This document shows positions 13,887-57,983 of a DNA stretch of 64,000 bases, one piece after another. Below the pieces are notes generated by a model. The model had not been told where the DNA came from. It did no database searches and saw only the letters and a program-made list of their open reading frames with translations. The translations under genes were made by a program, and so were the position numbers. Numbering within the stretch: position 1 is the first letter of the stretch; each line of letters opens with the position of its first letter. The DNA is from Schmidtea polychroa (lineage: Eukaryota): assembly GCA_044892525.1 (NCBI GenBank), contig CM097887.1, forward strand, positions 112,694,397 to 112,758,396, given 5' to 3'.

Positions 13887-14059
13887 NNNNNNNNNNNNNN
13901 NNNNNNNNNNNNNNNNNNNNNNNNNNNNNNNNNNNNNNNNNNNNNNNNNNNNNNNNNNNNNNNNNNNNNNNNNNNNNNNNNNNNNNNNNNNNNNNNNNNN
14001 NNNNNNNNNNNNNNNNNNNNNNNNNNNNNNNNNNNNNNNNNNNNNNNNNNNNNNNNNNN
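13887..14059. other. Assembly gap (173 N)
   Basis: Run of n characters inside the RNase H region. Confidence 1.
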
Positions 14060-14582
14060 ATAAAGATACGTCGAGTAGATTATTAAAATGGGCAATGAAG
14101 ATACAAGATATGAACATAAAAATTGCATACAAACCAGGTAGAATAAACCGAAATCCAGATGCACTATCACGAATTCCTGAGTTAGGAGCACTTGAAGTAT
14201 TTGTACCAATAACAGAAAAACCCATAGAGATATACGAGGAACAGATGAGAGACCCGGAACTCTTCAAGATAAGAGAGAAAATAAAAGGGGGAACTAATCA
14301 GAAGTATAAAATTTGTAAAAAAGTGATTGTCATTGAAGACTTTAGCGGTAAACAGTTAATAGTAGTACCACAAAGACAAATTCTTTTAGTACAATATCAT
14401 GATGGAGATTTAGGGGGTCATTTATCAAGTAGGAAAACAGCAAAACCACCAAATTAGCAAGACCATTCAAAGGACCATACGAGGTAGTGAAAGTCGTACA
14501 AGAGAATTTACACCTACAAAAACATAAAAACGAGGATCCCATAATAGTACATGTTAATAGATGAAAGTGAGAAGAAACAGAG

Positions 14583-15464
14583 TTGATAGAGAAACCTTCT
14601 CACAAGTATGGGTTACGATCACAAAAGGCACTAATGATGGCAGTAACATTTTTGAGAATTATAGGGTTGTGTAGACCAAGTGAAATTGAAAATAAAAACA
14701 TGCACTCAGTAGAGCACATGGCCGAAGATATTTTAATCAACATCGCATCACATCAGATTAAAGTATATAACCTAAATAAATCACCAATAAGGAATCTATA
14801 TCTAGAAACGAGAGACAATATACCCAAACTTATGAAAAAGATTGAGAATAAATCTACTAATGAATTTAAAAGAGGAGATATCGTTGAATTTATAAAGTTA
14901 CAACCTAATACTAGTTACACACTTGGTGCACAATGGGATACGATGGTTGACACATCACAAGTATGGTGTAAAAGGATAAAAACAAACATAGATAAACCTA
15001 TAGACAACACCATATCAACAACTATTATAACAACAACTACTACAAATTCAATATCCCAAACCTTACCTCAATTTCAACAGTCGGTACAAACAATAACAAA
15101 CACAGATAGAGAAACGATGTATAAAGCTGTTAGATATATATACAAAGAATCGATGATGGTAACGCCAAGACTATTTGATAAATACCTGATAAAACTACCT
15201 ACGGGGAAACCAATAATTATTAATAACTGGGATGAACTAAGAGCATTTCAAGTAAAACCTACTAAACCACGATGGCCTTTCTATGTAATTTCATCAAGCA
15301 TTTTAGCATTAAGTATTTTAGCTATTATCACCAGTGTTCAAGTGTATAAAAAATACAAATGGAAAAGGCAGCGGTATCGGTACCGACTGGTCAGAAATGT
15401 ACCAGGGCATTTTCATTTGGATAAGTATAGGTCAGGACAATACACAATGTCCTCATTGGTTTAA
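14583..15464 (+). CDS. Post-integrase type I membrane protein: signal-like segment, FN3-like domain, Thr-rich stalk, TM, basic tail
   Basis: Follows HKYGLRS (typical gypsy pol end); FIKLQPNTSYTL matches the FN3 L-x-P-x-T-x-Y signature; TTIITTTTT stalk; TM WPFYVISSSILALSILAIITSV then KKYKWKR. Confidence 0.65.
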   Translation: MIEKPSHKYGLRSQKALMMAVTFLRIIGLCRPSEIENKNMHSVEHMAEDILINIASHQIKVYNLNKSPIRNLYLETRDNIPKLMKKIENKSTNEFKRGDIVEFIKLQPNTSYTLGAQWDTMVDTSQVWCKRIKTNIDKPIDNTISTTIITTTTTNSISQTLPQFQQSVQTITNTDRETMYKAVRYIYKESMMVTPRLFDKYLIKLPTGKPIIINNWDELRAFQVKPTKPRWPFYVISSSILALSILAIITSVQVYKKYKWKRQRYRYRLVRNVPGHFHLDKYRSGQYTMSSLV

Positions 15465-15578
15465 AAATAATGTAAACAATTTCTATTGGTCAATGATAAG
15501 ATTTAAACTCACATATATTAATATTATTATTTATATTGAAGCGTATAAGGTAAAGCCTCAAATGCGCTGTAAATATGT

Positions 15579-17467
15579 ATGTATATTGTCTTTTTAGAAA
15601 AATTCAATCCAACAATATCAGAATCAATCCCAAACAATTCAACCCTATGCAACGTCCAGTCCAACAATACAAAAATCTACAAAATAAAATCACCAATCAC
15701 CATCAGAAGTTTCCCTAACCAGGTCTGCATACCTAACGAAATGAAGTGCGAAATCGAAGAAAGAGAAATGCACTTAGTCAAATTTAATGAAGCCCGAAGA
15801 ATAAAGCTGAGAGATATAATAGGCACCTATGATACGTTCGAAAATGCAGACAGCAGCAAGTGAAGGAAGAAAAGTCCCACGTAGAATGCTGTTCCACATG
15901 ACCAGAACTGAGGTCTCATTATGTCAACAACAAATTCCAATCATAACAACGAGCAACTGCACGGTGGTGATCAAGACAATGAAAACTAATCGAAGCGTAC
16001 CAAACGATTTCAACAATTTGGTCATTCAAATGAACAACTTACCCTGTGTGATGGCAATAGAAATTCTATACGTTCCAACTATACCCAACCCTTTCAAAGA
16101 ATTAGATATGATACAGTCAGAAATCATAATACATGAAGATTTCATCTCAAAACGAATGTCATTCACACATCAGCAGTTGTCAATCCCCGAAAGACAAAGA
16201 GCAATCATGTTCGTCGATGTCAAAGAGGTATGTGACATCAACAACAATCTTAGACCAGTCGAGATATACATTAGAAATTTTAGAGGGAAAATTGTGTACA
16301 ATAAAAAGGTGACTCCACGCACCAAAATCCAACACTATTACCCAGAAAAGACAAGAGCAGACAGAGATTCGATAAGAGGAAATGAAGATGAATATCAAGC
16401 ACTAATCGATATACAGAAGCTGCTACTAGGAAAAATCATTGTGGGATACGAAATAATAAAGAAACTCAAGACGTTGACATTAGATCTGTACAATGTCATG
16501 GGAGTCAGAGAGTTAGCTGAAGATGTGTTCATGTGTTCATTTGTAAAAAATGTAGCACCACACAGAATCAAATTGTCAAATCTCGCATATAAAGTAATCG
16601 CAGCACACCCAAAATGGAAGAAAGACAAAGCAATCAACAACATCCTCAAAAAACCCGAACCATTCTTAGCAGAAGATACAACATTAATCGCAAAAGTCAT
16701 TTACCTCATAGTCGAAAAGCAATGGGAAGAAGTCATAAGGTGGGACATGACAGCATTCCAAAAGGATAATAATGGCCATCAACTCATTCCAATAGAAGAA
16801 AACAGCGATGAGTCAGAGGAATTTGAGGAAGATATATATATCGAACCCTCACAAAGAGAATTAAAATTCAATAAAGACGGAAGCAGACGTACCTTTGAAG
16901 ATGAACTAATGGACAGTGATGATGATATCATATTCGTCAAGGAGGACAAAAAACCACAATCAATCACAATCAAGGAAGAACCTCAGGCATCAAGTAGATC
17001 CACGATGTGATTTGGACTCGGATGAAGAATATTTCTCACCGGACGAAGCAATGCAGGTAGATGACGAACTAGGACCAGAGCCAAATGTCGAGTTGGAGGA
17101 GCCAAATTTCATCATTAAAGAGGGAAGATCCACTATTTCGGAAAAGGAAATACACCAACACTTCGGTAGACGAATTATTGATGGTGATGTGTTGAAATTG
17201 GCATTGAAAAAAGGATTTCAGAGGGCAACAATGTACATAAACGGCTGTGAAATAGAATTGGTCCTCATCGATAAAGGTAATGAGGACATTACTTTATCGG
17301 CCCTAGGAGTGTTGGATGACAGAGGAAGGAGAATTAAAGAATTTGAGCTGACCCACTATTATAGAACGGCCAGCAACAAATTTAGAGTAAACATATATGT
17401 GGAGCCTAAACAATCAAATCAGCCAGATGAGCCAGATCCTTCAAACAATTCAAAACATTTATATTGA
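15579..17467 (+). pseudogene. Accessory ORF (two frameshifts) containing a REXO4/ISG20-like DEDDh exonuclease domain, apparently non-catalytic, plus acidic tail
   Basis: FVDVKE..IYIRNFRGKIVYNKKVTPRTKIQHY...IQKLLLGKIIVGY...LKTL...IKLSNLA...LAEDT aligns by eye with the ISG20/REX4 pattern. Confidence 0.65.
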
Positions 17468-22636: not shown

Positions 22637-22751
22637 AGTTATGTAAAGTTTTGTTTAAATAATATTCGTTGTAGCGTGTTTTTGAAAAATATATTTTATT
22701 GAATTATTATTGATTTATTTTATGAATTTAGAAGTTGAAGACATCATAACT
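22637..22751 (+). repeat. 5' LTR (115 bp, AGTTATG...CATAACT)
   Basis: Matches 27084-27195; 7 bp terminal inverted repeat. Confidence 0.95.
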
Positions 22752-22763
22752 GGCGACCACGCC
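22751..22763 (+). promoter_or_regulatory. Primer binding site TGGCGACCACGCC, overlapping the last LTR base
   Basis: TGG start directly at the LTR end; tRNA identity (possibly Ser) not verified. Confidence 0.8.
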
Positions 22764-22805
22764 AAGGAAATCAATGCGATAGGGAAAAAGAAAGGAACTA
22801 AGAAT

Positions 22806-23969
22806 ATGTTAGATTCCTTGTCAAAACAAGCACGTGAGATGCTAAATTTTAATGTAAGAAAGTTTGACGGAAAAGTTGGATCTGAAGCCGAACTTTGGCT
22901 AAAGGATATTATGGAATGGCTGAGAATAGAAGATCAAAGTCTAGTAGACGCATTGGATCTTTTGTTGACAGATGCGGCATCGATGTTATGGGATGCGGCG
23001 AAAATGGCGAAGATGACCGATGAAATGGCAAAAGAGTGGTTTATAGAAACTTTTACAGTAAGGAAACCCATTACTAACAAGATTGTGGAACTAGCTCAAA
23101 TTCAGCAAGAGAGAGATGAAAGATTCCAAGTCTTCGAAATACGAGTAAGAAGTTTAGTTAAAAGTGTATTTAGCTCTGTAATGTCTGATGAACAGATTGT
23201 TCGAGACATTATTTCAAACAGAGCGAAAGACGATAGAGTAAAAGAAATATTCTTATCAGGGAAAGTGACAAGTTTTGAAGATGCCAGGGATATGGCAAAA
23301 ATTCAGGAGAAGATCGAGATGACGAATGACAATAAATTCAATATTGATGCCATAAGAAGAGACTCTTAAGCATCAGTGATGAAAAATGGAAAATTCGAGG
23401 GTAGACGAGACCAAAGAACAATTGTGAAGACAACTGCACATCAACGCGACGAACACCGAGAGATTAATCATGAGAGGAATAGACCTGGTAATGGTCGGTT
23501 TGTACCAATTGTAAATGAAGACAAGAATGAAAATGAGCGGTATAGAGGACGATATGAGACAGGAGAACCAGAGAGAAGAATACCTACAGTATCGCTTAAA
23601 GATATTGCAAGAAGGTTATTTAATGACAGCAAGGGAAGAGATTCGCCTCATCCAGTGAAACTAACACCAGGTCAGTGTTTTTGTTGTGGAGAAAAAGGGC
23701 ACCCGCGTTTTGAATGTCCTATGAAAGACAAATGTCTAATCTGTGGAAAAGAAGGTCATGGATTCAGAGATTGTTTTTTGCTTAAAAATAGAAATGGATA
23801 TCAGAAGAGAGTGGCATGTATTTACGAAGAAGATCACGAAAGAAATAATGGTGATTTCACAGAAGATTTATACAGTAATTACGAAGAAACGATAAAAAAA
23901 TCAATGGATAAACCAAAAAACAAGGACGATCCCATTGCTTTCATTTCGTCAGTGGGGTCGACACAATAA
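22806..23969 (+). pseudogene. gag: gag with two CCHC knuckles and one in-frame TAA (23367-69)
   Basis: KFDGKVGSEAELWL capsid motif; CFCCGEKGHPRFEC and CLICGKEGHGFRDC; both ORF pieces are in the same frame. Start codon approximate. Confidence 0.9.
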
Positions 23970-26900
23970 TCAGTAGAAAGAAGCGAAATGAAGACATGAT
24001 GCAGAAGATGTATGAGACGACTGGCAAAAGAAAGTGGAGTAAGATTGTAATAAACATGACGGCGATTGACATGCTTTGGGACTCTGGAGCGTCAGTATCA
24101 GTTATGAGTGGAAAAAGTTGGACAAAGATCGGGAAACCGAGGTTGAAGCAGAGCACAATTTCTCTTTGTGGAGTATTTTCGACGGGAATGGAAAGACCGT
24201 TAGGAGCAATGACGATAGATGCTGATTGGAATGGGAAAAAAGAATTATTAATGTTATAGTTGTCAAAGATATACGTCCAGATTTCATTGGGGGTGTAGAT
24301 ACAATGGAGAGATTTGGTATTCAACTGGTAGAGGTGGACAATATTGAAGCGTCACAAGTAGGGAGGACATATGTGGACTCACAACAAGAAGAGAAAGCAT
24401 TATTAATGCTTGGAGACAGGAAGAATGAACAGTTAGACATATTGCTACGGAAGTTCAAAGGTATTTTTATGGCTTCAACTTTTGATCTCGGGTTTACGAA
24501 AGTTGTTCAGCATGAAATGAATATAGTAGGTGGGCCTGTAATGTTACAGCCAAGAAGACAACCAATGCATTTAGAACAAAAGCTTGACGAACTTGTCACA
24601 AACTTATTAGAAGCGAGAGTTATTAGAAAATGCAAAAGTGCATGGAACGCGCCACTAGTAATTGTGGCTAAGAAAGATGGATCAATACGGATGTGTGTCG
24701 ACTATAGAGGGTTGAATGCGATCACTGAAAAGATATCTTTGTCAATGCCAGATAGACGATTTCTACTGGATTGTCTGGCAGATTCAAAATATTTCACATC
24801 CATCGATCTAGGTCAAGCATATTATCAAGTTGGAATGGCGAAGGAAATTCAAGAGGTCACGGCTTTCAGTACAAGGCAAGGACAGTTTTGTTTTAACCGA
24901 CTTCCTTTTGGACTAGCAACCGCCCCTGCGACGTTTCAAAGAATGATGCACTCAATGTTGGATGGAATATTATTTAAGGGTGTTGTTGTCTACCTCGACG
25001 ACATTCTTGTCTATGGAAAAGACAAAGAGGAGCACAATAACCGATTAGAGGAAGTATTCAGAAGAATTCAACTAGCGGGGTTGAGAATTAACCCAGAAAA
25101 ATGTAATCTGTATAAAGAAGAATTTACATTCCTAGGGCACACTGTAAGTGCAAGTGGGATCAAAACGAACGACAAGAAGATTAAAGAGATTCAAGATGTA
25201 GAAATACCAGTATGCGCCAAACAATTAAGATCCTTTTCAGGTAACACCAATTACTATAGGAAGTTTATAAAAGACTATGCGAAAATTGCGGAACCTCTAC
25301 ATGCAGCTACGTCCGGCTGTGAGAAAAAGATTAATTGGTCAGAAGATTGCAACAATAGTTTTGAATTACTTAAAACAAAGTTGTGTGAAGCTTCAATTCT
25401 AGATTACCCAAGAATGGATAGAAACTTTATTCTGGATACAGACGCTAGTTTTGGGGCTATCGGAGCAGTTTTATGTCAAGCTAAAGAAGATGGTACTGAA
25501 GTGGTAATTGCATATGGGTCGAGACACTTGACCGCACATGAAAAAGGTTATTGTGTGACTAGGAAGGAGTTACTTGCTATACACGAATATGTAATGTATT
25601 TTAAACAATATCTATACGGAAAGTCATTTGTAGTACGAACGGATCACAAGGCGTTGGTTTTCATGAGATACACAAAAAAACCGATAAGCCCGCAATTTCA
25701 AACCTGGCTAGCCAACCTTTCCGGATATGATTTCGATCTTCAATATAGGAAAGGAGAGGAACATGGAAATGCGGACGGAATATCAAGGATTAAAGGGATG
25801 TTATGTGCACAATGCCAGACTAGACATGAAGACGCAAAAGAAGAAAAAGCCAGAGTAAGACATATCAGCTCATTACAGAAGACTGAGTCGATGACAAAAC
25901 TCTTAGAAAAGCAACAAGATGATGTAGATTTCATTCACATGACAAGAGTGTTACAGGGAGAAGAGAAAAAAGATGACTTGAATAAAAAGAAATTTCCTTT
26001 CAATTTGCATAACAACATAAAATTAGAAGATGGGTTTTTATTATTAGAGAAGAATGGTAAAGATGTCATCCTGGTGCCGATAGACTACTCAAATACGTTA
26101 GTTAAAGGAATACATACTGAAATGTGTCACATTGGAGTAAAGAAATTAATTAGCTATATGAGCAACATATTTTTTTGGCCAAACATGCAAGAAACTATAC
26201 AAAACTGTTTGCGAGTATGTGAGATATGCTGCAGAAGGAAAATAGTGCAGGAGAAGACAAAGGAACGATTGTTGCCGATAATAAGTTCAGAATTTTTAGA
26301 ACAGTTGGTCATTGATATAGCACACATGAAGAATGGTGGAGTGTACAAGTATATGCTAGTTATCATTGATCGTTTTAGCAAAATGGTCAGTCTGACCGCA
26401 CTGGAGAGACAAGACGAGAGATCGATTTTCAAAGCCATATTGGAGAAGTGGATATACCGTTTTGGAAAACCGCGAAATTGTCTGTCAGACAGAGGGAAGA
26501 ACTTCGATAGTGGTTTTATGAAAACAAATCTAGGAAGACTGGGTATTACGCAACAGTTCAGTTCACCATATCAGCATCAATCTAACGGTTTAGTTGAGAG
26601 AACAATACGGACAGTCAGAGACTTGCTGGCGACATCATTAGCAGGTGGACTAGGAGAGCGAAATTGGGCGGAGTTACTTCCTCGAGTAGGATTTTGTATC
26701 AACGTGACACAACAGAGCGCGACGGGATTTTCTCCATTTGAAATTGTTTTTGGGAGGAAGATTAACCTTCATTCAACATTGCCTCAGACGACATTGGATA
26801 CAGTTGAGATATAGATTGGTAAGAGAGAACAGTGAGAAAGCAGCTAAACGAATGAAAGAGATGGAAACAGAGAAGAGAACGAATCGATGTTTCACGGTGG

Positions 26901-27073
26901 GGGAGAAAGTATTAGTTCGGAAAGAACCACAAAATCGCGACAAAGATGGACTACAGTATGAAGGTCCGTTTGTCATATCAAAGTTTTTGTCAGAACACCA
27001 GGTGGAATTGAGTGACGGGACGACAAAGAAACTTAGACGAATTGAATGGCTTAAGAGATGGGCAGTTCCTTAA
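23912..27073 (+). pseudogene. pol: pol (PR-RT-RH-IN, GPF motif) with two single-base frameshifts (~24240, ~26810)
   Basis: LWDSGAS; YLDD; TDASFGAIGAVL; HTEMCH..C..C; IDI/SDRG/NGLVER; EGPFVI. No chromodomain. Confidence 0.95.
23915..23960 (+). promoter_or_regulatory. -1 ribosomal frameshift signal (A_AAA_AAC plus downstream stem-loop)
   Basis: Heptamer at 23915-21 is in the gag frame, the -1 frame is open from 23912 into the protease, and CGATCCCATT/AGTGGGGTCG pairs 5 nt downstream. Confidence 0.75.
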
Positions 27074-27083
27074 AGAAGGGGAG
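27072..27083 (+). promoter_or_regulatory. Polypurine tract
   Basis: AAAGAAGGGGAG immediately before the 3' LTR. Confidence 0.9.
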
Positions 27084-27195
27084 AGTTATGTAAAGTTTTT
27101 AAATAATATTCGTTGTAGCGTGTTTTTGAAAAATATATTTTATTGAATTATTATTGATTTATTTTATGAATTTAGAAGTTGAAGACATCATAACT
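27084..27195 (+). repeat. 3' LTR (112 bp)
   Basis: Matches 22637-22751. Confidence 0.95.
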
Positions 27196-35218: not shown

Positions 35219-35975
35219 TCAATTTGCCATTAGTATGATATCAGCCCGATGGTCGTGACAGACAGAGATTATGCATTCTCCATCAGCAAAAGGAAGATTT
35301 TGGCTAAGAGCCCAACCATACAGATTATTTATATCAATATATAGTAATTCTGTATTATCAGAAGCAGCAACGTAATGTTTGTTAACAAATGTTAACCCAC
35401 CACGTATTCCTCCTTCGTAAAAATTGAACATTTCCATGTCCTGTAAAAGTTCTATAGGCTCAGTTAATGTCATAAGCGCTGAGGCCCATGACATACCCGG
35501 AATACCATAAAAGTTTAGAGGTTCTAGACCATTGTATGCAATGGCCTTGGCACGGAATTGTTGGAAATAGTCCGCAATGAGGAATACATCCAATTTTTGA
35601 TAAGTTAACATATAGTCAGCCAATTTAGTACAACGTTGTTGAGTCCAAATAAGTTGAGCCTTAGCATACTCATCTTCAGTAACACCAGACCAAATAGGAG
35701 GCAATTCATAAGTGGTTTCAAGTACATCCAAATCAGTCGCATAATCATAAGGAAATATGGCTTTAGCATCTATTATTAGCCTATCAAAAACCAACGAAGT
35801 CAAAGGAAGATCAGTTAGAGTTTTTACAGCCTTAGCCAAAGAACAATTAACAAATTGCATGCTGTCGATAAAACGAACAGCTAATTTTTTAATGTGAACA
35901 ATCATGAAAAGTTTGACAAACGAACTCAAGAATTTGGAAAGGCTTGTGGTGCTTCGCGTTTTCTTTAGCAGATAC
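35219..35975 (-). pseudogene. Protein-primed family B DNA polymerase fragment (Polinton/Maverick type)
   Basis: RFIDSMQF..SL..V..L; LDV.LIADYF..FR; LEPLNFYGIPGMSWA; IELLQD....EGGIRGG; LYIDINNLYGWALSQNLP. Truncated on both sides. Confidence 0.9.
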
Positions 35976-35989
35976 TTCAACATTTTAAA

Positions 35990-37214
35990 CGACAGCGGGG
36001 GAGATAAAGACAATAAAGACGACAATAATGACGAGAGAGACCGAAATGGGAATAAAGAGGAAAAGAAATCAGAGGAGAATAATCAAAGGAATAACGACTC
36101 AAGTACAGAAAAGGAGGAGAACACCCACGGAAACCGAACAAAAGAAGAAAAATCAAACAATGGAAAACAGAGGGTATGCCTACCTTTTACCAACAAGGAA
36201 ATAGAGACAAATATAATATTAATGATAATTGTACTGACCATGATAGAGTTAGTAACAGCCCACGGAGGAACGAGAACGATAAAGGAAACTAAGGTAGCCG
36301 AAAATCAGGACAGTAAAGAGGAAGAATTAAAACAAGAAAAGAAAAAGCAAGTACAAGAGCAACAGTGGGAATTAAAAGAAGAATGGGGCCTAAAGGAAAA
36401 GTGCATACTAGGAAGATGTATGTCTAGAGCGTATCAGAGATTAGTACTGATAAACGAGGACACAGAACCGATAACAGAAGTAAGAATACAAGAAGCATAC
36501 CGAAATCGAGACGGGAAAAGAATAACGAACGTGAAAGGAAAAGAGGTGCACCTAGGAAAAGGAGGTGAAGTAGTAATAACACAGCTCCAACCAAGAAAAG
36601 AACACAAAGTCTGTATTTCAAGATTAGGACCGGGTGAAAAATGCCATCAATATGTGACACAACAACAACCCCCAAAAAAATACACGGTTTGTCCCTGGAG
36701 GAACGAATCAAAAAGGGAATGCCGACGATACCCGGGGAAAAGAGGGAAGAAAAGAAAAAACAACGACGAAAAGGACGAAGGAGGAAAACACAAGAAAACC
36801 GGCGAGGAAGCTCAGGACAACTATGTTTCGGAGGAAGAGATGGAAAAAATACAAAAGATGGCAAAGGAGGGTATGAACGAGGAAATAGCAAGAATGCGAG
36901 AGATGATGAAAGGAAATGGGAAAAGAGGAAACGAGAAAAGTACAGAAGCGATATCAACATTAACAAACGAGGAAAAACCAGAGAGTATAAGCGTAAAGCA
37001 GATGATGTGGATCAGTGGGATAATAATAACAGGGGCATTTCTAATCATAACGGGGGGAACAATAAAAATAATTAAAGATAAACGACATCGCGGAGAACTG
37101 GAGATGACCCGAATCAGAAATTTCCAACATCGAGTGAAACGACCAAGTGATATCAAACAAGAACAGTGGGTGGAGGCCTGGAACGCTCAGCGCCCTCCAA
37201 ACTCACGTATATAG
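35990..37214 (+). CDS. Charged leader, signal/TM segment, FN3-like domain, charged stalk, TM, tail (5' end lost at the junction)
   Basis: IILMIIVLTMIELVTA; GGEVVITQLQPRKEHKVCIS...KCHQYVT; TM MMWISGIIITGAFLIITGGTI. Confidence 0.65.
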
Positions 37215-37374: not shown

Positions 37375-37734
37375 ATGGAGCAAGGAAATAACGAAATGAA
37401 CCACAACACAGTAACTGAAGAATTATGGAAGCAACAATGTGCCGTATTAGCACAATTAGTGTCTAATTTGCAAGAACGAGGACTGACGATGCAAAGGAAC
37501 CTAATCGAGAGTATGAACAGAGGATTTAGTTATTTAAAAATAATTGAAGACCAGAGGTTAAAAATCGAACAAATGCAAAGAGAGATAGAGAGGATAACCC
37601 AATATAGCCGAAGACAGGAAATCGAACTAGAAAGAATGATGGAGGAAGCAGAACAGACAGAAATGGAAGACTGGTCAGAATGGTTAACGAACAGGGGAGA
37701 GGGCGGACACGAAGCCGACTCTTCCGAACCATAA
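37375..37734 (+). CDS. Hypothetical coiled-coil protein, acidic tail
   Basis: 119 aa ORF from ATG 37375, heptad-rich, bounded by AT spacers. Confidence 0.6.
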   Translation: MEQGNNEMNHNTVTEELWKQQCAVLAQLVSNLQERGLTMQRNLIESMNRGFSYLKIIEDQRLKIEQMQREIERITQYSRRQEIELERMMEEAEQTEMEDWSEWLTNRGEGGHEADSSEP

Positions 37735-37819
37735 ACCAAACCTAAATTAAAATGTAAATAATTGTAAATAAAATATCGAACCTGTATCGATAAGAACTAT
37801 ATGTATATATAATTATAGA

Positions 37820-39208
37820 ATGGATAAACGACAAAGAGAAGAGTTCAGAGAGATCGTCGAACAAGTCAGAAAATCTACATCGATCAGAATACACAAACAT
37901 GTTATGTGCGGAATATGTGAAAAGTTGCTAAAGGAACCCCACCAAACCCTATGTGGATGCAGATTATGTAAGGAATGTATCAGTGAAGCAATAAAGAATA
38001 GACCACAGTGGTGCCCGGTGTGTAAAGAGACACTAATATCGAGTCTAGAAGACACTAACGAGGATAAAGCCGCAGTGAAAGACATGTTAAACACCAATCT
38101 GGGATGTAAAAATACCCCATGCGAGTGGAAAGGAGTAATATGGAAAGTAATGCAACATATGGGAGAATGTAGGTACAGAGTCGGCCATTGTGAAAGGTGC
38201 CATAAAACCAGTCGAGCAAGCGAAGAAAAAGAGCATCAAAGCCAGTGTGAAGAGAGACTAGAATGATGTGAACATTGTGGAGAAATAGATACGTGGAAAA
38301 ATCTCATCATCAAACATCACAATGTCCAAGAGGAAAAGGTATGTGCAGAGTTCAGTGGGGAATGCCTGAACGGATGCGAGGAAGGGAGAATAATAAAAAT
38401 AGCCCAACACCTAAAGGAATGTGAAATGAAAAGAATGACATGTGTACTAGGTAAATGGGGCTGTCAGAAACTACTACACCGAGGAGAGTTACCACATCAT
38501 TTAGTAGAAAATGCTTCAACCCACGCAGAAATGTGGTCGACTGCGTTACAAGAAAGTGAAGAGAAAGTAAAACAAATGGAGATAGAGATAACATCGTTGA
38601 AAGTGTTAGTCAAAGAACTACTAGAAGAAAGAGAAGCGTTCGAAGAAGCTCGGGCAAACATAAAGATGCAAATAAATCGTATAGAAATCAGCAATAATCA
38701 GGCCAAGGTGCTACATCAAAAGATAACTGAGATAAATCTAAATGAAGTAATACCAACCGCACCCTACGTATGGAAAATAACGGGAGTAAAAGAAAGAATA
38801 CGAAAAGCAAAAACCGGAGAAGAAACAAAAATAACGAGTCCCGCATTCCAGTCTTGGAAAAATGGGTACAAAATGAAAATGAAGATATATCCCAACGGGG
38901 ACGGCACCGGATTAGATACACACTTTTCGGTTTTCTTTCTGTTATGCGAAGGGGAATACGACGAAATAATAGAATGGCCGTTCCAGGCGAAGATCGACAT
39001 CGCACTAATGAACGACCGAAACATCCACGAACAAAGCTTCAAGACGACGGGAAACCAAATGTGTTACCAGAGACCTACGGAAGAAGAAGGATCAGCAACG
39101 GGAGCGCCTACGTTCATTCTACAACAAAAAGTAGAGGATATGGCGAGAAATGACACAGTATATATCAAGATGACCGTGAGGAAAGAGGGGAAGGGTAGAA
39201 CAGAGTAA
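37820..39208 (+). pseudogene. Intronless TRAF-family protein (RING, TRAF zinc fingers, coiled coil, MATH), one in-frame TGA at 38264-66
   Basis: CGICEKLLKEP.Q..CGCRLCKEC....CPVC; CKNTPCEWKG; WKITG..SPAF..GYKMKMKIYPNGDG.G..THFSVF..LCEGEYD.IIEWPF. The two ORF-track pieces share a frame with 53 open codons between them. Confidence 0.92.
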
Positions 39209-39402: not shown

Positions 39403-39744
39403 ATGACACAAGAGAAAATAACCGAAACTACGATAGCCCCAACCAATACCAACAAGACACAAATTCGCCGAGAATATAGCGAAAAATGGAACAAAGTAAT
39501 GTTCCAACTAACTAACCTCACCCGAAATTACATCGAAGAAGCTAGAGAAGATGAGAACAGTAAATATCAATGGCTAATACACAATTTAAGAGAGGAGGCT
39601 GAATCGTGCAAAAGAGCGTCGAAATGGGCGTCATTAGAAAATACCCGCCAAGAAGCGCACAGCCACTACTTGAAACAGCTGGTGCAGGAAGCGAGAAAGA
39701 GGCTCACTGACGAAAACGCAAAACGCGAAGCGGAAAACAAATAG
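39403..39744 (+). CDS. Hypothetical helical protein
   Basis: 113 aa ORF; TTTAG|AAATG context. Confidence 0.55.
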   Translation: MTQEKITETTIAPTNTNKTQIRREYSEKWNKVMFQLTNLTRNYIEEAREDENSKYQWLIHNLREEAESCKRASKWASLENTRQEAHSHYLKQLVQEARKRLTDENAKREAENK

Positions 39745-39755
39745 AAGGAAGAAAA

Positions 39756-40414
39756 ATGATGCATTTATTGGCAGAGGCCAGAAAATGGAAAAGACAAAAT
39801 AGTGAAATGAAAAAGGAGATGAAAGAATTGCCCATGAGACTCGGATATGAAAGTGAACAGGGCAAATGGGAACAAAATTTAATAATAAAGGAAGAATTGA
39901 AACGGTTGAGAAAGGTCGCCGCCCGAAGCCAAACATGCAGACAAAGGCTATGGAGTTTGAGCGACATTTGGCAATGAAATGCGACATAAGAGAACACGAG
40001 AATGCAGCAATGGAAGAAATGATACTTCAGCAATCAGGACGAGTCGTGGAACTGGTAAATAAGGTCGCAGCACTGGAACGAGATGTCAATGGATACCAGG
40101 GAGCACTGGAACAAAGAAATATGGTATTAGCAGGAAAAAATAAGAAGTTGGAAAACGAATGGAAAATGTATACCGAAAATCTCAAAAATCTGGAGACAGA
40201 GATCGAGAAATGGAAGGGCGAGGAAAAGATAAAAGAGTTAGATAGACAATTAGAAGCCAAAGATGAAGAGACGAGATACCTCACCTATTTGCTCGACGAG
40301 GAATTGAATATCACTAGAGCATTACGAGATGAAGTTCATGAGTTGAGAGCTCAAATTCCCCAATATTACATACCATATGACATCCAGCGGTCGATAGCGA
40401 TGAAGGCTACGTAG
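39756..40414 (+). pseudogene. Coiled-coil protein, probably one frameshifted ORF
   Basis: Overlapping ORFs 39756-39977 and 39866-40414, E/K/L heptad-rich. Confidence 0.55.
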
Positions 40415-40603
40415 GCCAGGAGGAAACCTTCGTATAAAAGGGATCAAAAAGATAAAAAACTAAAAATCGGGACGTATATCCCAAACAAAAAAATTAAAGT
40501 ATTGTAAAAGTATTCAAGGGATTGTAACCCAAACTATTAAATTTTATATAAATGTATACGTATAAGTCGCACTATAGCGCACCATTAACTGTACATATTA
40601 TAG

Positions 40604-41311
40604 ATATGAAAATCAAGGAAATGATAGAAATCATGAGTGATGTGGAAGAAGGAGAGATTGTAACGGAAACAACAGAAACACAAACGCTAGAAGCAGAATT
40701 GCGGGCAGAGAAGTGTGAAAACGAGAGACTGGTAAACAAGTACATAGAGGACCGGAAAATAATAAAGATATTAAAGAAAGAATGCAGAGTGCTAGGGGAA
40801 GTAAAAAGAGAAGCAGAAGAGGAAAATGAATGGCTTCACGAACAAAGGAATGCGAGGGGAAAACTGGGAACAGATAGCGGAAGAACTATGGAAAGAAAGG
40901 GCAAGCCTTAAAGCAGAAGAAGTGATTGAGGACTACTGGAAAACTGAGGCGAAGGAGCGCCAAACAGCTATAAATAAATTAAAACGACAACTGGAAGAAA
41001 ACCAACGGGAAAGTAAAGAAATGAGGAAGTGGGTCCGCAAATATAGAGAAATAGAAAGAAAACATCAACAACAAAATTACCTGCAAGAAAACGAACAAGA
41101 CTTCCTACAAATTGAGCTAAAAAGAAACCTTGAAAAGAAAAGGGAAGAAATTAGACGCTTGGAAAAAGAAATTAGACATTTAAAGAGAGAAGCCCGTGAA
41201 AAAGACCGACAATTGGAAATGCTGCCCGAGTTAAGACACAGGGTTATTAAAGCAGAGTCCACCTTGATGAGAATCGCCGAAAATAACCCCAAATCAGAAC
41301 CATTAAATTAA
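40604..41311 (+). pseudogene. Coiled-coil protein, frameshifted
   Basis: Overlapping ORFs 40552-40911 and 40826-41311 with continuous heptads. Confidence 0.55.
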
Positions 41312-41347: not shown

Positions 41348-42004
41348 ATGTATAATAGTATCATGCGAGGCGAGATGATGATAACAATGATGGTATTGAT
41401 GATTCTGATGGAGAGCCAACAAATAAATGCCCAACCGAAAACCGTACGAGATTACCGAAATCAAAATCAAGAACCCAAACAAGAATCCTGCCAATGCACA
41501 TACCCTATGACCGTAAAAACCAATATTATCCAAACCATTCAATCAACCCGATCACACATCAACAACATCCGAACAATGTGTAAAAAGAATCCCATTTGTA
41601 AAATGATAAACAAACAAATCCTCGAACAAATCCAACAATTCGACCAGTTGGAACAACAAATGCAACAAGAAAATTTTGGAAATCTTGTAGAAAAGCCAAA
41701 AACACCCCCAGAAACTAGCGAGGCTTATTATCTCATGTGTGTAGTGATCACCGAAACTACTTTATTGTGTCTGGTAACTCTCTTAAAAATTTACGAAATA
41801 AAGAAACAATGTCAAAGTACGAAAACCAACAACACCCAACCAAACCCAGATGAAATAACTAACACCATCGCAAGCCCACCCAGATTATCCAGTAACGGAA
41901 CTCCGCAACCAACATCCAGTCGTCAAAATTACATCAATCTCCAAATTCATCAACCACCCCAACCAGGCCGTCAGAGCAATCCATCTATATCGTCACTGAA
42001 CTAA
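41348..42004 (+). CDS. Predicted single-pass membrane protein (signal peptide, Cys-containing ectodomain, TM, P/S/Q-rich tail)
   Basis: MMITMMVLMILMESQQ; CQC...CKKNPIC; TM AYYLMCVVITETTLLCLVTLL; tail with NYINL. Confidence 0.65.
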   Translation: MYNSIMRGEMMITMMVLMILMESQQINAQPKTVRDYRNQNQEPKQESCQCTYPMTVKTNIIQTIQSTRSHINNIRTMCKKNPICKMINKQILEQIQQFDQLEQQMQQENFGNLVEKPKTPPETSEAYYLMCVVITETTLLCLVTLLKIYEIKKQCQSTKTNNTQPNPDEITNTIASPPRLSSNGTPQPTSSRQNYINLQIHQPPQPGRQSNPSISSLN

Positions 42005-42239
42005 AACATTGTGTGTAAATTAATGTGTATATGAACTATCACCTTAAGTGATACTGGCTTGGTCTTGCTTTGACCTTTATCTTACAATAAAATTTTTATC
42101 ATTGTTGTATAATTTTTCTCGTTTGTGTTATATTTTTTTTATGAATGAATGAGTTAAGTTAATTATGCAATTGCGGGACGCAATTTTGATGGGTCCCCGA
42201 GTGATTTGTTGGGCTGAATCGAAAATTTAATCGTTGAAA

Positions 42240-42870
42240 AATAAGAAAGTAGGAAAGTAGAACATTAAGGAAAATAAAAATAAAATAAATGAAATCAGAG
42301 ATAAAATAGAATAAGATATAAGGAAAATAATAATTAAGACATAAGAATTAAAACAAAAAATAAAATTAAGAAAAGATTAAAATAGAACAACAAGTTGACA
42401 AATAAATAAGGAGGAATTCAAGAAATAATAAGGAAATTAAGGAAATAAATAGAAAAACATATTAAAAATAAAGAAAATAAGGAAAAACAACCTAAAAACA
42501 AGAAAATTATATTAAATTAATAGAAATAAGCGGTACTCAACTCTGATTGGTCCGCACAAATAAGAATTTGCTATATATACAACCACCAAAATCATTAAAT
42601 TTACTGTTAACCCCGAGCATTTTATAGGTAAGAGAGAATGTTTAAATTGTCTACTGTTAACCCCGAGCATTTTATAGACATCCACAACTTACGGAGACAC
42701 ATTCAAGAATCAGAGACACTAACCGAGCAACAGTTCATTCAGAGAATTCATAGCTACTTACAATCAATTCGAAGCTAAGCGATTTGTCACAGCAATCGAT
42801 ATTCCATCAACAAACTCATTCAGAGCGACTCACATTAATTTTTCGATCCAGCCTAATTCGACAGTAAGGG
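42240..42870 (+). promoter_or_regulatory. Promoter module 1: A-rich tract, CTGATTGG (42543), TATA (~42572), short exon, GTAAG donor (42864)
   Basis: Same order as modules at 52210 and 59410. Confidence 0.55.
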
Positions 42871-44848
42871 ATTTTATTTCATTTATTTATTTAAATTCGA
42901 AGTTAACAGTATTATGTATCTTTAATGAATAATTAAAAATTTTGAAAAATAACATTGACTCTCTTTTCATTTGATCCCAATTAATGATTTCGATAAAGTA
43001 AATAATTTAAAGGTCTAAAAGTAGTTATTAGTGATAAATGAGCGATTGCACAATCTTTATGATTACTGTTATGAAATACCTTTTTTATGATTTTTTAAAG
43101 TAACGAGTAACGTGGAGTTGAGGAACCGCAGATCATGGTATGAGGTGCCTTCGGGAGCTCTGCCGGTGGATCTGAGGTTCTTCAATCACGCAGCTAGATT
43201 GGGCCGAAATGTGAAGGTTTCTTCGCGGGTCCAATCGCTGAAGGATTGACTCAAAATTAGACAGAATGAGGAAAAACGATTTAGATTAGTTATATGAATT
43301 TAGAACGAATACCGAAATGTACAGTGATTGAGGTGGACATTACATCTGCAGTGAGTTTATTTCCATCCTGAGGAACCATGCGATCCTGAGTCTAACTTTT
43401 CGCTAGCATCGTCGTAATCAGTCCAATTTGACTCTAACATCGTACTAAATTCCACACTTATGTTCGGTTAATTAAAAATTAGGACGAATTCTATATTCCT
43501 TCATTTTTCAGTTAAAAATAAATAAAGCTCTAATGTATAAATAACATTTATTAAAATTAAAGTAAAGACATAACTCCTGATAATCATTTATTTAACTTAT
43601 ACTTACTAGTAAACTAGAAATACCCGTTCAGCAGTTTCCACACCATCACATCAGGATGTCTATCATCGAAATAATATCCACATAGAGTAGGGAGTTGAAT
43701 TGTAGAACTTTTTCATCAAGTAATATCTAGAATTGAGGAAAATCTCCAAACATAGTAAATAATTCCAAAAAATCCAAACGAGAGAATTGTCATGAAAATT
43801 GAACGGTTGAGAATTTGTCCATATGATGTGCGAGTGCAGATAAATTTTCCATTGAGTAACACTAGCATGACTATGGGTAGCAACACCAGCGTTGGAATTA
43901 CCTGAGAATTACACACGAGGATAGATGATAATCACGCAGCGAGTGCATGGCTAATCATAGTAGTCTGTGTTCCATATGTCGTATTTAGTGTAGATTCTAG
44001 CATTACGACTGATAACGACGGGATATTGATTACTCGTCATAGTAGCTCCATGAATAGCAGATGATGGCTCTCATGGATTTTGTGTTGAAATGCGATCAAC
44101 GAAAGATAACTACATGCAGTAACATTTCACAAACCACTCATCTGGAAAATTTTCGAATGAATTAAATTTAACTGATAATAGAATGACTAAATGGATAATA
44201 ATAGACAATTATAATTTGAATTAAATAATTTAAAGGATAACCGAATGACCAAGTGCGTAATTGTAGACCAGTATGAGTTAACCTAAATAATTTAAACGGT
44301 AAAGGGCATTGTTAAATTAAGTGGGGATAATTGGGACCTGCTAACTAATGATGGAAAACTAAAGCCAAGCGTTAATAATAGAGTCGGAAATTGTAAATTC
44401 GAGTGTTACGAGTGATCTAACGAACAACTAATAGTAATTTTGAATAATAGGTAAATTAATTCGAGTTCGTGAATAATAACATTTTGAATAATCACGGTAA
44501 ATGTTTTAAATGATAATTAAGGGTGTTTTAACAGCTACTCAAATGTACCTTTTAATAATCAGATATGTTTATAGACCAACAATCATGGGGCAATTTAGTA
44601 ATTAATAAACCTTCTCAATTTCTAAGTTAAAGATTTATTTGCATTCGTCAATGCTATCCCTTTACTGAACTATTCGTTAAATAAAAGCGATGTTACAAAA
44701 TCGTCTAGAAGGGAAATCCATCCCCCCACTTATTCCGAATACCCGCTAACTGCTGACAGTGACTAACCAACCTCATTCGACCTGCGATCTTATTCATATA
44801 AAAGATTTAGTAAGTCGTTATAGTTCCTTATTTTACAGTTGATCAATT

Positions 44849-45592
44849 ATGCTGCCAACTACGAAATCCACCTTACGTCCTTGCTTCTCTTGCGAGGACA
44901 AAAACGCGATTATAAAGGATCTTCAGGCCCAGATCGGGCGCTACAAAAAGAAGATAGATGAGCTGGAGGGCACTTGGTTTACCCCCGCTCAGATGAAGGA
45001 GACTCAAAAGAAGCTCCATCGTAGTGAGCATTGTCGGGACGCGCTCATCTCGGAAAGCCGTGCCCAGAGAAGCCTTATTAAAGAACAGTCAGAAGCGCTG
45101 CACAAAGTCTACGTACAGGCAGCTACCACACAAAAAATCGTACAGATTCCCATCAAAGAGGCCGATAACATCTTCCCGCCTCATCATAACCCCTCATCAA
45201 AACCATCTCCACCGTTCAAGAGACCATGTCGAGACTGCGTGGAGACCGAACTGTCACCTATGCGACCGGACGTTGTCATCACAGGTACTAGTAAGACCTC
45301 AACTGCTGGTACCTCTGTATCCGCTGCGCTTCAGCAAGTCGCATCTACAAGCAAACCCAAACAATTATCTCGTGCGGAACGTAAGAAGAGACAGCGTGAG
45401 CGCGCATCCACCAAGCCAAACATCCCATCGATAGAAAACTCAACCAGTGGTAGTAGTTCGCGCGTGTCCATCGACTTGACAGTAGGACCCCCGGCGCGCA
45501 TCATCTCAGCAGCTGGCGTGACGTTGGAGGAAAACGCCTCCGAATTCTTTAATCTGGATGAGTTACTCGCCGACACCGAATGGGGAAAGTAA
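44849..45592 (+). CDS. Repeated ORF family copy B, 247 aa (CxxC, coiled coil, Arg-rich motif, acidic-hydrophobic tail)
   Basis: Intact ORF; TTTTACAG acceptor 10 nt upstream; homologs at 46467, 54817, 57219, 58400, 27995(-). Confidence 0.85.
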   Translation: MLPTTKSTLRPCFSCEDKNAIIKDLQAQIGRYKKKIDELEGTWFTPAQMKETQKKLHRSEHCRDALISESRAQRSLIKEQSEALHKVYVQAATTQKIVQIPIKEADNIFPPHHNPSSKPSPPFKRPCRDCVETELSPMRPDVVITGTSKTSTAGTSVSAALQQVASTSKPKQLSRAERKKRQRERASTKPNIPSIENSTSGSSSRVSIDLTVGPPARIISAAGVTLEENASEFFNLDELLADTEWGK

Positions 45593-45862
45593 GAGAACCA
45601 CAGCGGCATTCCCGAAGCCTGTTGCGAAGTCGAACTACATTTGTTGGGGTGTTTTTCTTTTCCTTCGACAAACATTCGTGATGTGTACAGTTGAATCCTT
45701 GTGTCTAAATGTTGAAATTAATAAATTTTGTTGTTTTATATATTTTCGTTTATGAATAGTCAGACTTTGATTAAATAGGTTAAATAAAGCGTCTTCGAGA
45801 GCTAAGGAATAATCCCCGATATGTTTTCGCGAAATTCTGACAAACGGTGGTGTAATGAGATG

Positions 45863-46134
45863 GACGTAAGCCCTTCTATCGGCAGTCGTGAATGGGAAGT
45901 CGAGGCCTCAGCAAGGAGTAGTTTTAAGGCAGAAGCTCACCTGCCTGCTGGCGTCTCGCCTGCATAGTGCAGTACCAACGTGAAGTAATTCACGGGCACT
46001 ATGTTGGAGGAAAGTTATGTGGGGTTTCACTCCAGGTTGACAAGGCAGTAGCACATTTTATTCGAGATGGACAATCCACCCTTAGACCAGCCAATATCGT
46101 AGAGTAGTCAGCCGAGGTGTAACCCCAACATAAT
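45863..46134 (+). ncRNA. Structured RNA motif copy B (core 45863-46004, second domain 46014-46134)
   Basis: Stems GGCAG/CTGCC, GCATAGTGC/GCACTATGT, CGTGAA-GTAA-TTCACG; GTTATGTGGGG/CCCCAACATAAT. Confidence 0.7.
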
Positions 46135-46466
46135 GGTGGATACGAGCCCAGGGTAGTAATTAAATATCAACCTTAGATGAACTTACTTGCGTAACCACTT
46201 AATCGAATAAATCAAAGGGAGAGCTGCGAATTAAAATCGTTTCACCAACATGGGAAATTTCACCATCTTTTTCGCATTCGTCAAATCGACAATTTACACT
46301 TAAGTTGAATTGTGCTGTAAACATCTTAGTAACAGAGTTGGATGTTAAGATAAGTTCTTTCTTGGTGTTCGTTGAATACCCGCCCGCGAATAGCCAGTTA
46401 GTCGAGTCTATATTTTAAAATTGATTCTTGTATATTCCACATCTCACATTTGCCTTTATAGTTATC

Positions 46467-47216
46467 ATGACACCAACTGCCAAGCCTGCGTTACGTCCTT
46501 GTTTTTCTTGCGCGGACAAAAACGCCATCATCAAGGACTTACAAACCCAGATTGGGAAATACAAAAGGAAGATCGATGAGCTAGAAGGGACATGGTTCAG
46601 TCCCGCTCAGATGAAAGAGACCCAGAAGAAGCTCCATCGTAGTGAGCATTGCCGGGACACTCTAATCTCTGAGAGCCGTGCCCAGAGAAGTCTAATCAAG
46701 GAGCAGTCGGAGGCGCTGCACAAAGTCTATATCCAGGCAGCCGCCACCCGGCAAATTGTCCAAATTCCTATAGGCGAAGCCGATCAGCTCTTCCCAAGGC
46801 ACCACGACACCTCGTCAAAGTCGTCGCCACTATCTAGAAAGCCTTGCAAAGGGTGCGTAGAGACTCAGCTCTCGCCCAAGCCAGCCGACGTGATCTTTAC
46901 CGGCACCAGTAAAACGACTCAATCTATCGTTTCTACCTCCGCCCTGCCTCTCGTCATTAGCAGCTCCTCAAAGCCTAAGCGTCGGCAACTGTCACGTGCT
47001 GAACGCAAAAAGAGACAGCGCGAGCGTGCATCTACAAAGCCGAACGTCTCCTCAACGGAAATTCCAACCAGCATCAACGATTCTCACACGACCATAGACC
47101 TAACCACTGGACCCCCAGCACGGGTTATTTCAGCAACTGGAGTAACCTGGGAGGAGAACGCCTCCGAGTTCTTTGATCTGGATGAGTTACTCGCCGATAC
47201 TGAATGGGAGAAATAG
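46467..47216 (+). CDS. Repeated ORF family copy C, 249 aa
   Basis: Intact from ATG 46467; CTTTATAG acceptor 5 nt upstream; 73/79 identical to copy B in the N-terminal core. Confidence 0.85.
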   Translation: MTPTAKPALRPCFSCADKNAIIKDLQTQIGKYKRKIDELEGTWFSPAQMKETQKKLHRSEHCRDTLISESRAQRSLIKEQSEALHKVYIQAAATRQIVQIPIGEADQLFPRHHDTSSKSSPLSRKPCKGCVETQLSPKPADVIFTGTSKTTQSIVSTSALPLVISSSSKPKRRQLSRAERKKRQRERASTKPNVSSTEIPTSINDSHTTIDLTTGPPARVISATGVTWEENASEFFDLDELLADTEWEK

Positions 47217-47491
47217 GAGGCCACGGTGAGCGTTCATAATGATATCCAAAGACTCCATCTACCTTTGTTGTGATATTTTCCCCTCTTATTAAAAACATGG
47301 AAATGTGCATGGTTAAGTTCTGTGTTGTAATATAGTAACCAATAAACCTTACTGTCTATTTTGTTTTCTTTTCCTTTCAAGATTAGTCTGATTATGATTA
47401 AGGACGTCGAGCTAAAAACTTTAGAGGCCCAGTAAACAAATGCCGATCTGTGCTCAACGAAATTTCGCTAGGCGGTTGGGTACTGAGAACG

Positions 47492-47764
47492 GACGTAAGC
47501 CCTTCTATCGGCAGTCGTAAGTGGAAAGTCGAGGCCTCAGCAAAGAGTAGTTTTAAGGCAGAAGCTCACCTGCTTGCTGGCGTCTCGCCTGCATAGTGCA
47601 GTACCAACGTGGAGCAATTCACGGGCACTATGTTTGAGGTCAAGTTATGTGAGGTCCCACTCTGAGTTGAACGGCGAAAACGGATAATATACGAGGTGGA
47701 CCATCATCCCTTAGCGAAAAGAGGTATCGTGGACAGAATCAATCGAGTGGTACCCCAGCATAAC
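47492..47764 (+). ncRNA. Structured RNA motif copy C (core 47492-47633, second domain 47644-47764)
   Basis: 7 differences from B over ~142 nt of core; GCAA tetraloop in place of GTAA. Confidence 0.7.
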
Positions 47765-54816: not shown

Positions 54817-55390
54817 ATGTCGGAGCCAAATTTACCTCCTCGCGGACCAAAACCGTCCTTTCCATGTTCAGACAAAAACATGGATATCAAGAAGCTGCAC
54901 ATAGGGGTTCTCAAAAAACGTATCGACACGCTAGAACACACGTGGTTCTCCCCACCACAAACGAAAGAGGAGAAGATGAAGGTACTCAGATTAGAGCACT
55001 GCCATAACAGTCTCTTAGAAGAAAGTCGTCAACGACTGACTATTAAAGCACAATCCGAAGCCCTCCACAAGATCTACTCCGAATCGGAATTACAGAAACG
55101 AGTTAGAGAATACCCGATCAAGGACGGGGTAAAGGTATTCCCGCTTCACCATCGAGCGGAGGAGAAATCATTGAGCCCGTTCTGAGCAAGGCAGCGGAAA
55201 ACCCTACTCTTTCTACACCTATCACTCATGAGACCATTCCTATCACTCACCCAGTCAATACCGAAAAATCAGTCAACTCAACTCCTGAGAAACGTAAACG
55301 GCCGCCTAGAGCCGATCGAACAGCAAAACGAAGAGAAAAGATGGAGGCATTAGAGGCTTCGTTATTTGCTCCCCAATCCGCTGTTGGGCT
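54817..55390 (+). pseudogene. Repeated ORF family copy, frameshifted at ~55180 and 3'-truncated
   Basis: FPCSDKN.DIKKL..LKKRID.LE.TWFSPPQ.KEE..LEHC..QSEALHKIY; KRKRPPRADR in the next frame; TTTAG acceptor 2 nt before ATG. Confidence 0.8.
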
Positions 55391-57218: not shown

Positions 57219-57983
57219 ATGACCGCACCGACCAAATCAGTCAAAGATCTTCGTCCGTGTTTCTCTTGTTCGGACAAAAATGAAGATATCAAGAAGCTAA
57301 ACATCTATATCGGGGCCTTGAAGAAACGGATTGATCTATACGAGGGCATGTGGTTCTCCCCGCCACAAATGAAGGAGGAGCGTAGTAAAATTTTGAGATT
57401 GGAGCACTGCCGTGACAGTCTCCTGGAAGAAAGTAGGTGCCAGAGGCTAACGATAAAAGCCCAATCAGAGGCCCTACATAAGATTTATACGGACGTCGAG
57501 ATTTCTAAAAGGGTCCGAGAATATCCAATCCAAGACGGGACTAATGTGTTCCCGATACACCATCAGTCAGCTGGAGCCCCATCAACGACTAGCTGCAAGG
57601 GACATGGCTCACAATCGTCACCCATTCTCGCTCCAGCTCTCTCAGGTTCTAGGCCTATGACAAAGGGTCCATCGGACCCCATCTTGGCTCCGATTCTTCA
57701 GCCTCACCATGTGCAACCATCAGTAGAAACCACAACGCCAAATCGGAAACGTAAGAGGCCGACGCGCTCTGAGAAGAATCAAAAGCGCAGGAACGCCATC
57801 GCCGCGCTAGAGACTTCACTATCAGTGGCCCAATCCACCATCAAGGAGATCTTAAATTCCTATTCAATTCCAACTAAGGAAGTATTCCGGGTGGTTCCGG
57901 CCGACGGTATAAAGTTCATTGCAGATCGCCGGTTGCCCGTGGACATAGATGAAATGCTAGCTGAAGGGGAAGTTTTCCCGTGA
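57219..57983 (+). CDS. Repeated ORF family copy D, 254 aa
   Basis: Intact ORF; CTCTAG|ATG acceptor; RPCFSC...WFSPPQMKEE...QSEALHKIY; RKRKRPTRSEK; VDIDEMLAEGE. Confidence 0.85.
   Translation: MTAPTKSVKDLRPCFSCSDKNEDIKKLNIYIGALKKRIDLYEGMWFSPPQMKEERSKILRLEHCRDSLLEESRCQRLTIKAQSEALHKIYTDVEISKRVREYPIQDGTNVFPIHHQSAGAPSTTSCKGHGSQSSPILAPALSGSRPMTKGPSDPILAPILQPHHVQPSVETTTPNRKRKRPTRSEKNQKRRNAIAALETSLSVAQSTIKEILNSYSIPTKEVFRVVPADGIKFIADRRLPVDIDEMLAEGEVFP

Follow-up and report, generated by a model that had tools for sequence, protein, structure and literature searches.

Why does a complete TRAF gene, with its RING, zinc fingers, coiled coil and MATH domain in one intronless frame, lie among repeats in a planarian genome, and what would such a gene do there? 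We addressed this question for a 64,000-nucleotide stretch of Schmidtea polychroa DNA (hereafter the window; contig CM097887.1, positions 112,694,397 to 112,758,396), in which the gene occupies 37820-39208 of the forward strand. It translates as a single frame of 462 codons plus a terminal stop, with one internal TGA at 38264-38266, and translation together with Pfam searches bore out the one-frame architecture that an initial annotation had proposed. The RING was recovered as zf-C3HC4 (residues 30-68, E 7e-5, above the PF00097 cut-off) and the C-terminal domain as MATH_2 (E 8e-27) and TRAF-mep_MATH (E 6e-26). Indeed, the protein has the N-terminal RING and TRAF zinc fingers of the TRAF family, the latter by a weak zf-TRAF match (E 0.007, below the cut-off), as well as the C-terminal coiled coil and MATH domain, the coiled coil being placed by alignment to TRAF3 (8zuk/1flk) and not from a fold. 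The nearest solved relatives of the MATH, or TRAF-C, domain (38765-39178) are TRAF1, TRAF3 and TRAF2. When an open sister copy of the gene was compared with solved structures, TRAF1/2/3/5 C-domains were matched at E about 1e-27, and its N-terminal part matched TRAF6/TRAF5 RING-zinc-finger structures at E about 1e-14; the core MATH motifs of vertebrate TRAFs (YxNGDG, WPF and QRP) are kept. The RING (37907-38023) is of the C4C4 type, like that of host triclad TRAFs, and the Cys noticed earlier in place of the usual His is genuine, since all eight ligand positions, the fourth included, are Cys in 42 of the 42 element copies that cover them. The A-rich composition shared with the neighbouring sequence was likewise confirmed: AT skew is 0.33-0.58 across 36-42 kb of the window, and the gene is 41% A and 18% T, compared with 27-34% T in six host TRAFs. 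A full HMMER search with this TRAF matched 6,070 proteins, where a word-indexed homologue search with its C-terminal part as query had returned 849 candidates and none at E 0.001.

The gene is not a single-copy locus free of retroelements, a situation that would have spoken against its proposed mobility. In a DNA search of the 781-Mb genome, for which the best 40 of 357 candidates were scored, 40 of 40 matches covered the whole TRAF at 92-100% and were spread over all four large contigs. A 24-mer from the MATH part had 102 exact genome matches, against 0 for a control, giving at least 102 loci. In other copies that were fetched, likeness to the window begins at about 35980, spans six accessory ORFs and enters an LTR, and upstream of this cassette they encode a polyprotein that was read piecewise and comprises about 4,270 codons. 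The polyprotein contains Retrotrans_gag, two CCHC knuckles, a Monjiviricetes fusion glycoprotein (E 5e-70), protease, RT, RNase H, integrase and ankyrins, and its order in these copies is gag-env-PR-RT-RH-IN-ankyrin, so that env separates gag from PR-RT-RH-IN. The LTR has TG...CA ends and a length of about 4.17 kb; 4-bp target duplications were found at one full-length insertion and one solo LTR, and the stretch just past the 5′ LTR resembles what we take to be a tRNA-Pro primer site. The repeat unit measures 26.2 kb plus one 4.2-kb LTR, and one insertion spans about 30.4 kb. The two LTRs of the full-length insertion with the 4-bp duplications are 99.6% identical, and the family has therefore moved recently. 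The element is thus a Ty3/gypsy LTR element of Burro type, ~30 kb long, and the TRAF is third among its 3′ accessory genes; the Burro-type assignment was made by setting the architecture against the published description of Burro1/GYPSM1. Its fixed position in the element, its at least 102 loci and the Burro architecture together sustain the original proposal that a retroelement carries and multiplies it. Paired TRAFs 26 kb apart had been considered as lying within LTRs, a reading that was rejected because they belong to tandem elements with a common LTR. Such head-to-tail tandems were seen at L021-L025 and L031-L035, and the units of the former are 100% identical over long stretches, from either very recent duplication or an assembly effect.

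The copy in the window is a dead, 5′-truncated remnant, and its TRAF is not a functional gene, because the polyprotein is lost, the TRAF has a private stop and two further cassette genes are split between frames. Everything 5′ of 35980 is missing. The internal TGA is present in only 1 of the 43 copies examined, that of the window, which rules out programmed read-through or a selenocysteine codon. What remains, all on the forward strand, is the first accessory ORF (35980-37214, truncated at its 5′ end; a 434-codon frame in other copies), a 119-aa ORF (37375-37734) homologous to the 153-codon pre-TRAF ORF of the sister family described below, the TRAF, two coiled-coil genes that each lie in two frames here (39403-40414, a 368-codon frame in other copies; and 40552-41311, a frame of about 253 codons in other copies), and a last ORF of 218 aa (41348-42004), which has no Pfam match and, as judged by eye, is hydrophobic at its start and again in a second stretch. 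The 3′ LTR follows at 42207-46130, with TG...CA ends, and holds a 247-aa ORF at 44849-45592.

Four relatives of this ~250-aa ORF occur in the window (44849-45592, 46467-47216, 54817-55185 and 57219-57983), all without a Pfam match, and as the one at 44849-45592 sits within the LTR, the LTR itself encodes a protein-length frame. A separate repeated unit of 1.63 kb (46130-47760, forward strand), akin to the 3′ part of the LTR and outside the core element, starts exactly at the LTR end, and the same two ends recur at seven other places at 93-95%. To the left of the truncation, a young and unrelated repeat of 624 bp (35282-35905, reverse strand) includes a fragment of DNA polymerase B; 39 of 39 other scored matches to this repeat stood at 99%. 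We rejected the idea that this fragment and the cassette move together, as the window itself gave the only junction-spanning match among the 40 scored. The window also holds a second broken, env-carrying gypsy element at 5741-17467, with Monjiviricetes fusion pieces and extra 3′ ORFs, whose RT is about 56% identical to the Burro-type RT; a DDE_3 transposon bounded by long terminal inverted repeats interrupts this gypsy element at 6554-7862, and one of the ORFs of the gypsy element includes an inverted repeat (8354-8484) whose 64-bp arms match perfectly and lie 3 nt apart. A compact gypsy element at 22654-27195 has two identical 98-bp direct repeats, each leading into a gag start.

The full-length TRAF frame is open in 36 of the 43 copies examined, which comprise the 40 best DNA matches and three more of at least 102, a set that favours complete copies and so overstates the open fraction. 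For 39 of these copies (three tandem twins and one partial copy were dropped), pairwise dN/dS was 0.10-0.17 in all six divergence bins, or about 0.13, with out-of-frame controls at 1.5-1.6, as estimated by a simple, rough counting method from copy pairs that are not independent. The dN/dS comparison suggested at the outset therefore indicates purifying selection. By domain the values were 0.09-0.15, with MATH the most constrained (0.094) and the RING at 0.12. Variable sites common to several copies fall 41/36/145 on codon positions 1/2/3, and changes private to one copy also lean towards the third position (64/47/118). In six matched elements dN/dS was 0.137 for the TRAF compared to 0.034 for the RT, and neighbouring accessory ORFs gave 0.11-0.18. 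The TRAF is a working element gene, constrained like the neighbouring accessory ORFs and less than the RT, and we regard its status as element cargo under selection as nearly certain. Since its dN/dS is no lower than that of the neighbouring accessory ORFs, this selection demonstrates usefulness, not an immune role.

A second element family, 90-91% identical in its RT to the window's family, carries the same kind of cargo. A probe from its TRAF had 227 exact genome matches, and thus at least 227 loci, and the dN/dS of this TRAF was 0.18 (10 copies). The sister cassette has the same order and homologous ORFs, with a TRAF at the same position that is 30% identical to that of the window's family; directly after it lies an extra BIR-RING IAP gene, and a further MATH domain lies within the polyprotein, between gag and env, in a frame of 4,791 codons. 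All three of these survival-related parts were seen at L121:555-1730 and L094:1414-2874. The polyprotein MATH and the 487-frame TRAF had been considered to mark two families, which was rejected as both occur in the same element. Examined for the same marks of Burro1 proper, the window's family showed no MATH domain in its polyprotein and no BIR/IAP gene. The cassette position of the TRAF, common to both families, suggests one old capture that predates their split; the TRAFs of the two families join in the tree with an SH-aLRT of only 84-91.

From where was the gene captured? The initial annotation had taken the lack of introns as a sign of retro-capture, on the understanding that host TRAFs normally contain introns. 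In this genome, however, seven host-type full-length TRAFs are likewise single open frames, so that a lack of introns is no argument for retro-capture here. Similarly, the Cys-for-His RING does not set the element gene apart, as it is common to 9 of the 9 host-type frames checked and to named Dendrocoelum TRAFs, although only 17 of the 99 database TRAFs that have the motif show the Cys form. Both odd cues are host traits, and they therefore point to a triclad donor and do not show retro-processing. The best named database relatives of the element TRAF are triclad TRAFs of Dendrocoelum and Dugesia. The host locus L041, the one for which copy number was checked, is single-copy at full length, and its identity with D. 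japonica TRAF2-like A is 71%. The beginning of its frame (~130 nt, L041:2750-2886) has matches at 81-88% to many short, dispersed repeats. Quick trees place the element TRAFs beside triclad genes, apart from a host cluster on contig 2, and in a tree without the sister family and three long rows the nearest rows are host TRAFs. The phylogenetic comparison thus placed the element TRAF next to triclad host TRAFs but singled out no donor gene: the element TRAF has a long branch and an odd composition, and its placement outside the triclad group was not rejected (p-AU 0.31). An ancient capture from the TRAF lineage of the planarian host itself is likely, and we have reasonable confidence in a host-triclad origin.

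Element copies also bear on counts of planarian TRAFs. In a MATH profile search, the best 150 of 1,551 candidates included about 94 element-type matches (about 80 from the second element's TRAF, 13 from the MATH in its polyprotein and 1 from the window's family) and about 56 host-type matches, classes that were assigned from match signature and frame length with 14 element-type rows fetched and checked, and that do not represent genome-wide proportions. The host-type matches group apart from the element genes in the tree, and contig 2 contains a large cluster of host-type MATH exons with frames of about 180-210 codons (L049-L070). The earlier suggestion that a mobile TRAF could inflate apparent family size is therefore partly right: element copies add to genomic counts (at least 102 and at least 227 loci, and about 94 of the best 150 matches), but the separate host expansion, with about 56 of those 150, is real. 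For S. mediterranea, passages of PMC6109357 and PMC7586133 describe a TRAF/MATH expansion, with 121 MATH domains in transcripts in the former and 282 TRAF/MATH transcript contigs in the latter, and the string 'transpos' is absent from the text of PMC7586133.

The sequence before the TRAF bears on how it may be expressed. An 85-bp spacer (37735-37819, forward strand) precedes the gene. It contains an AATAAA that resembles a poly(A) signal, 53 nt ahead of the TRAF ATG, and an acceptor-like TAG that lies one base ahead of this ATG. The spacer is nearly invariant, 67 of 89 positions being unchanged across 38 of 38 copies, and its AATAAA and acceptor-like TAG are arranged alike in the sister family. 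Of the 11 accessory ORFs that the two families have, 8 show, by raw count, an AG no more than 4 nt from their first ATG, and two of the other three have a TAG before a second in-frame ATG. As judged from this conservation of the DNA, the acceptor-like sites suggest that the cassette genes are expressed as separately processed subgenomic mRNAs. The TRAF mRNA would be cis-spliced from an LTR leader to the site before its ATG, or would receive a trans-spliced leader there; spliced-leader trans-splicing is in use among flatworms. Contigs from runs only guessed to be RNA covered 30 of 30 bins (X1), 22 of 30 (X6) and 8 of 30 (X7) over the TRAF region of a sister copy, a coverage that we do not count as evidence of expression.

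What might the protein do? TRAFs form trimers through the coiled coil and MATH domain, bind receptor tails in the MATH groove and take part in RING-dependent ubiquitin signalling, and TRAF2 partners with cIAP. The element protein may trimerise in the same manner, its MATH groove may bind receptor tails or adaptors, and it may compete or co-assemble with host TRAFs. In this way it could dampen cell-death or innate-immune signalling where the element is expressed, to the benefit of the element. We favour such a role as a signalling modulator, with somewhat better than even confidence, because it fits the TRAF-IAP pair of the sister family and the TBK1 dependence of host TRAF genes in planarian innate responses, which is described in part of PMC13563047. 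Apoptosis and ubiquitination domains are also prominent in Burro according to passages of PMC6431247. The anti-death reading is less strong for the window's family, from which the IAP gene is absent. In the portion of PMC8532177 that concerns BURRO1 RNAi in S. mediterranea, the smedwi-2 phenotype was not rescued, so that a large host effect is not indicated in that species. Taken together, it is quite probable that the full-length TRAF is a selected 3′ cargo of a giant Burro-type element, likely captured from the host and likely dampening cell-death or innate signalling, with a dead copy in the window. A bolder version is more speculative, and we put it forward only tentatively: Burro elements would possess a complex-retrovirus-like cassette whose subgenomic mRNAs encode a captured cell-survival module, consisting of the full TRAF in the window's family and of adjacent TRAF and IAP in the sister family, like the TRAF2-cIAP pair. 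Planarian cells that express transposons would be shielded from death by this module, which would also blunt innate signalling by TRAF/TBK1, and some of the planarian 'TRAFs' studied would be transposon products.

The main rival to signalling modulation is that the element retains the TRAF to serve its particle cycle, such as ubiquitin-dependent trafficking, budding, or turnover of Gag/Env or of a restriction factor, and not for host survival signalling. The retention of all eight RING ligands, the RING dN/dS of 0.12, the envelope protein that the element encodes and the additional MATH between gag and env in the sister polyprotein would all suit this role. We nevertheless consider it rather unlikely, since the whole TRAF architecture is kept along with MATH motifs common with TRAF1/3, the strongest constraint falls on MATH, and an IAP accompanies the TRAF of the sister family. 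A different beneficiary is conceivable too, as the copies might be partially domesticated and kept for the host, for example as extra wound- or stress-induced TRAFs; host TRAFs are indeed needed for survival and regeneration in S. mediterranea (part of PMC7586133), and the third-position lean of single-copy private changes could reflect such retention. Many source lineages would explain those changes equally well, however, and the RT and the other accessory ORFs are equally or more constrained, as expected from selection during element replication, while the window's copy has decayed; host benefit is therefore improbable.

Two further explanations have still less in their favour. The element might have been the source of the host TRAF expansion, given that several host TRAFs consist of one open frame, as expected of retrocopies. 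We strongly disfavour this possibility because the element TRAFs group apart from both the contig-2 cluster and the single-frame host TRAFs, the latter have counterparts in Dugesia and Dendrocoelum, and the A-rich, T-poor composition of the element is absent from host genes. Finally, the window's copy, with its stop and without a polyprotein, might be taken by itself for a neutral passenger or a lone host gene among repeats, a view refuted by the fixed position of the TRAF in the element at no fewer than 102 loci, a dN/dS of about 0.13 and 36 of 43 open copies.

These results sharpen a published hint, that of apoptosis and ubiquitin domains in Burro, to a complete TRAF with a dN/dS of about 0.13 at more than 300 loci in two element families. 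Studies of planarian TRAF/MATH counts, RNAi and expression should tell genes borne by elements from those of the host. Provided that host survival signalling is indeed modulated by the protein, innate immunity would be the target of a retrotransposon accessory protein, and this in an animal in which the genome is carried by somatic stem cells.

The principle itself is not new, as the published text of PMC6431247 already reports, in the passages on Burro, a TRAF domain in these elements, even in an accessory ORF. Our literature search found no other paper on a full-length TRAF in Burro elements; it did not extend to Grohme et al. 2018, whose Burro-2/3/4 figures and supplements may already show the ORF. 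In the parts of PMC8532177 and PMC11410931 that mention Burro, TRAF does not appear. Among host proteins, the triclad TRAFs (Dendrocoelum lacteum TRAF-2/-4/-5, Dugesia japonica TRAF2-like A, and L041-L044, L046 and L103 of this genome) resemble the element TRAF in architecture, in a length of about 450-480 aa, in the Cys-type RING and, in this genome, in the single frame, but are only 27-31% identical to it, with none evident as donor. The vertebrate TRAF1/2/3/5 match its MATH domain at E about 1e-27 to 1e-23, but are longer proteins, with a His-type RING in fish TRAF2-like rows, and the element MATH has several substitutions. Among elements, passages of PMC6431247 describe Burro1/GYPSM1 of Schmidtea mediterranea with MATH_TRAF_C in the polyprotein, BIR, ankyrins, and env between gag and pol, and the Dugesia tigrina Burro-like element with MATH_TRAF_C in an accessory ORF. 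As so described, Burro1/GYPSM1 is similar to the window's family in its size of about 30 kb, its long LTRs, its giant polyprotein with PR-RT-RH-IN, ankyrins and env between gag and pol, and its TRAF-derived cargo, whereas the polyprotein of the window's family is shorter (about 4,270 codons) and lacks the in-frame MATH, and its cassette lacks an IAP gene. The comparison with published Burro domain content, made by description, thus agrees on the gag-env-pol-ankyrin order and TRAF cargo and differs on the polyprotein MATH and the BIR. The Burro1/GYPSM1 description is best fitted by the sister family, with its MATH-containing frame of 4,791 codons and its BIR gene. The Dugesia tigrina element, in the same partial account, is like the window's family in having a polyprotein without MATH and a TRAF domain in a separate accessory ORF, but that ORF is called upstream, whereas the TRAF of the window's family lies downstream of pol, before the 3′ LTR. 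Where the TRAF part of Burro1/GYPSM1 is described there as a MATH_TRAF_C domain only, the window's family carries a complete TRAF, from RING to MATH, as a separate 3′ gene.
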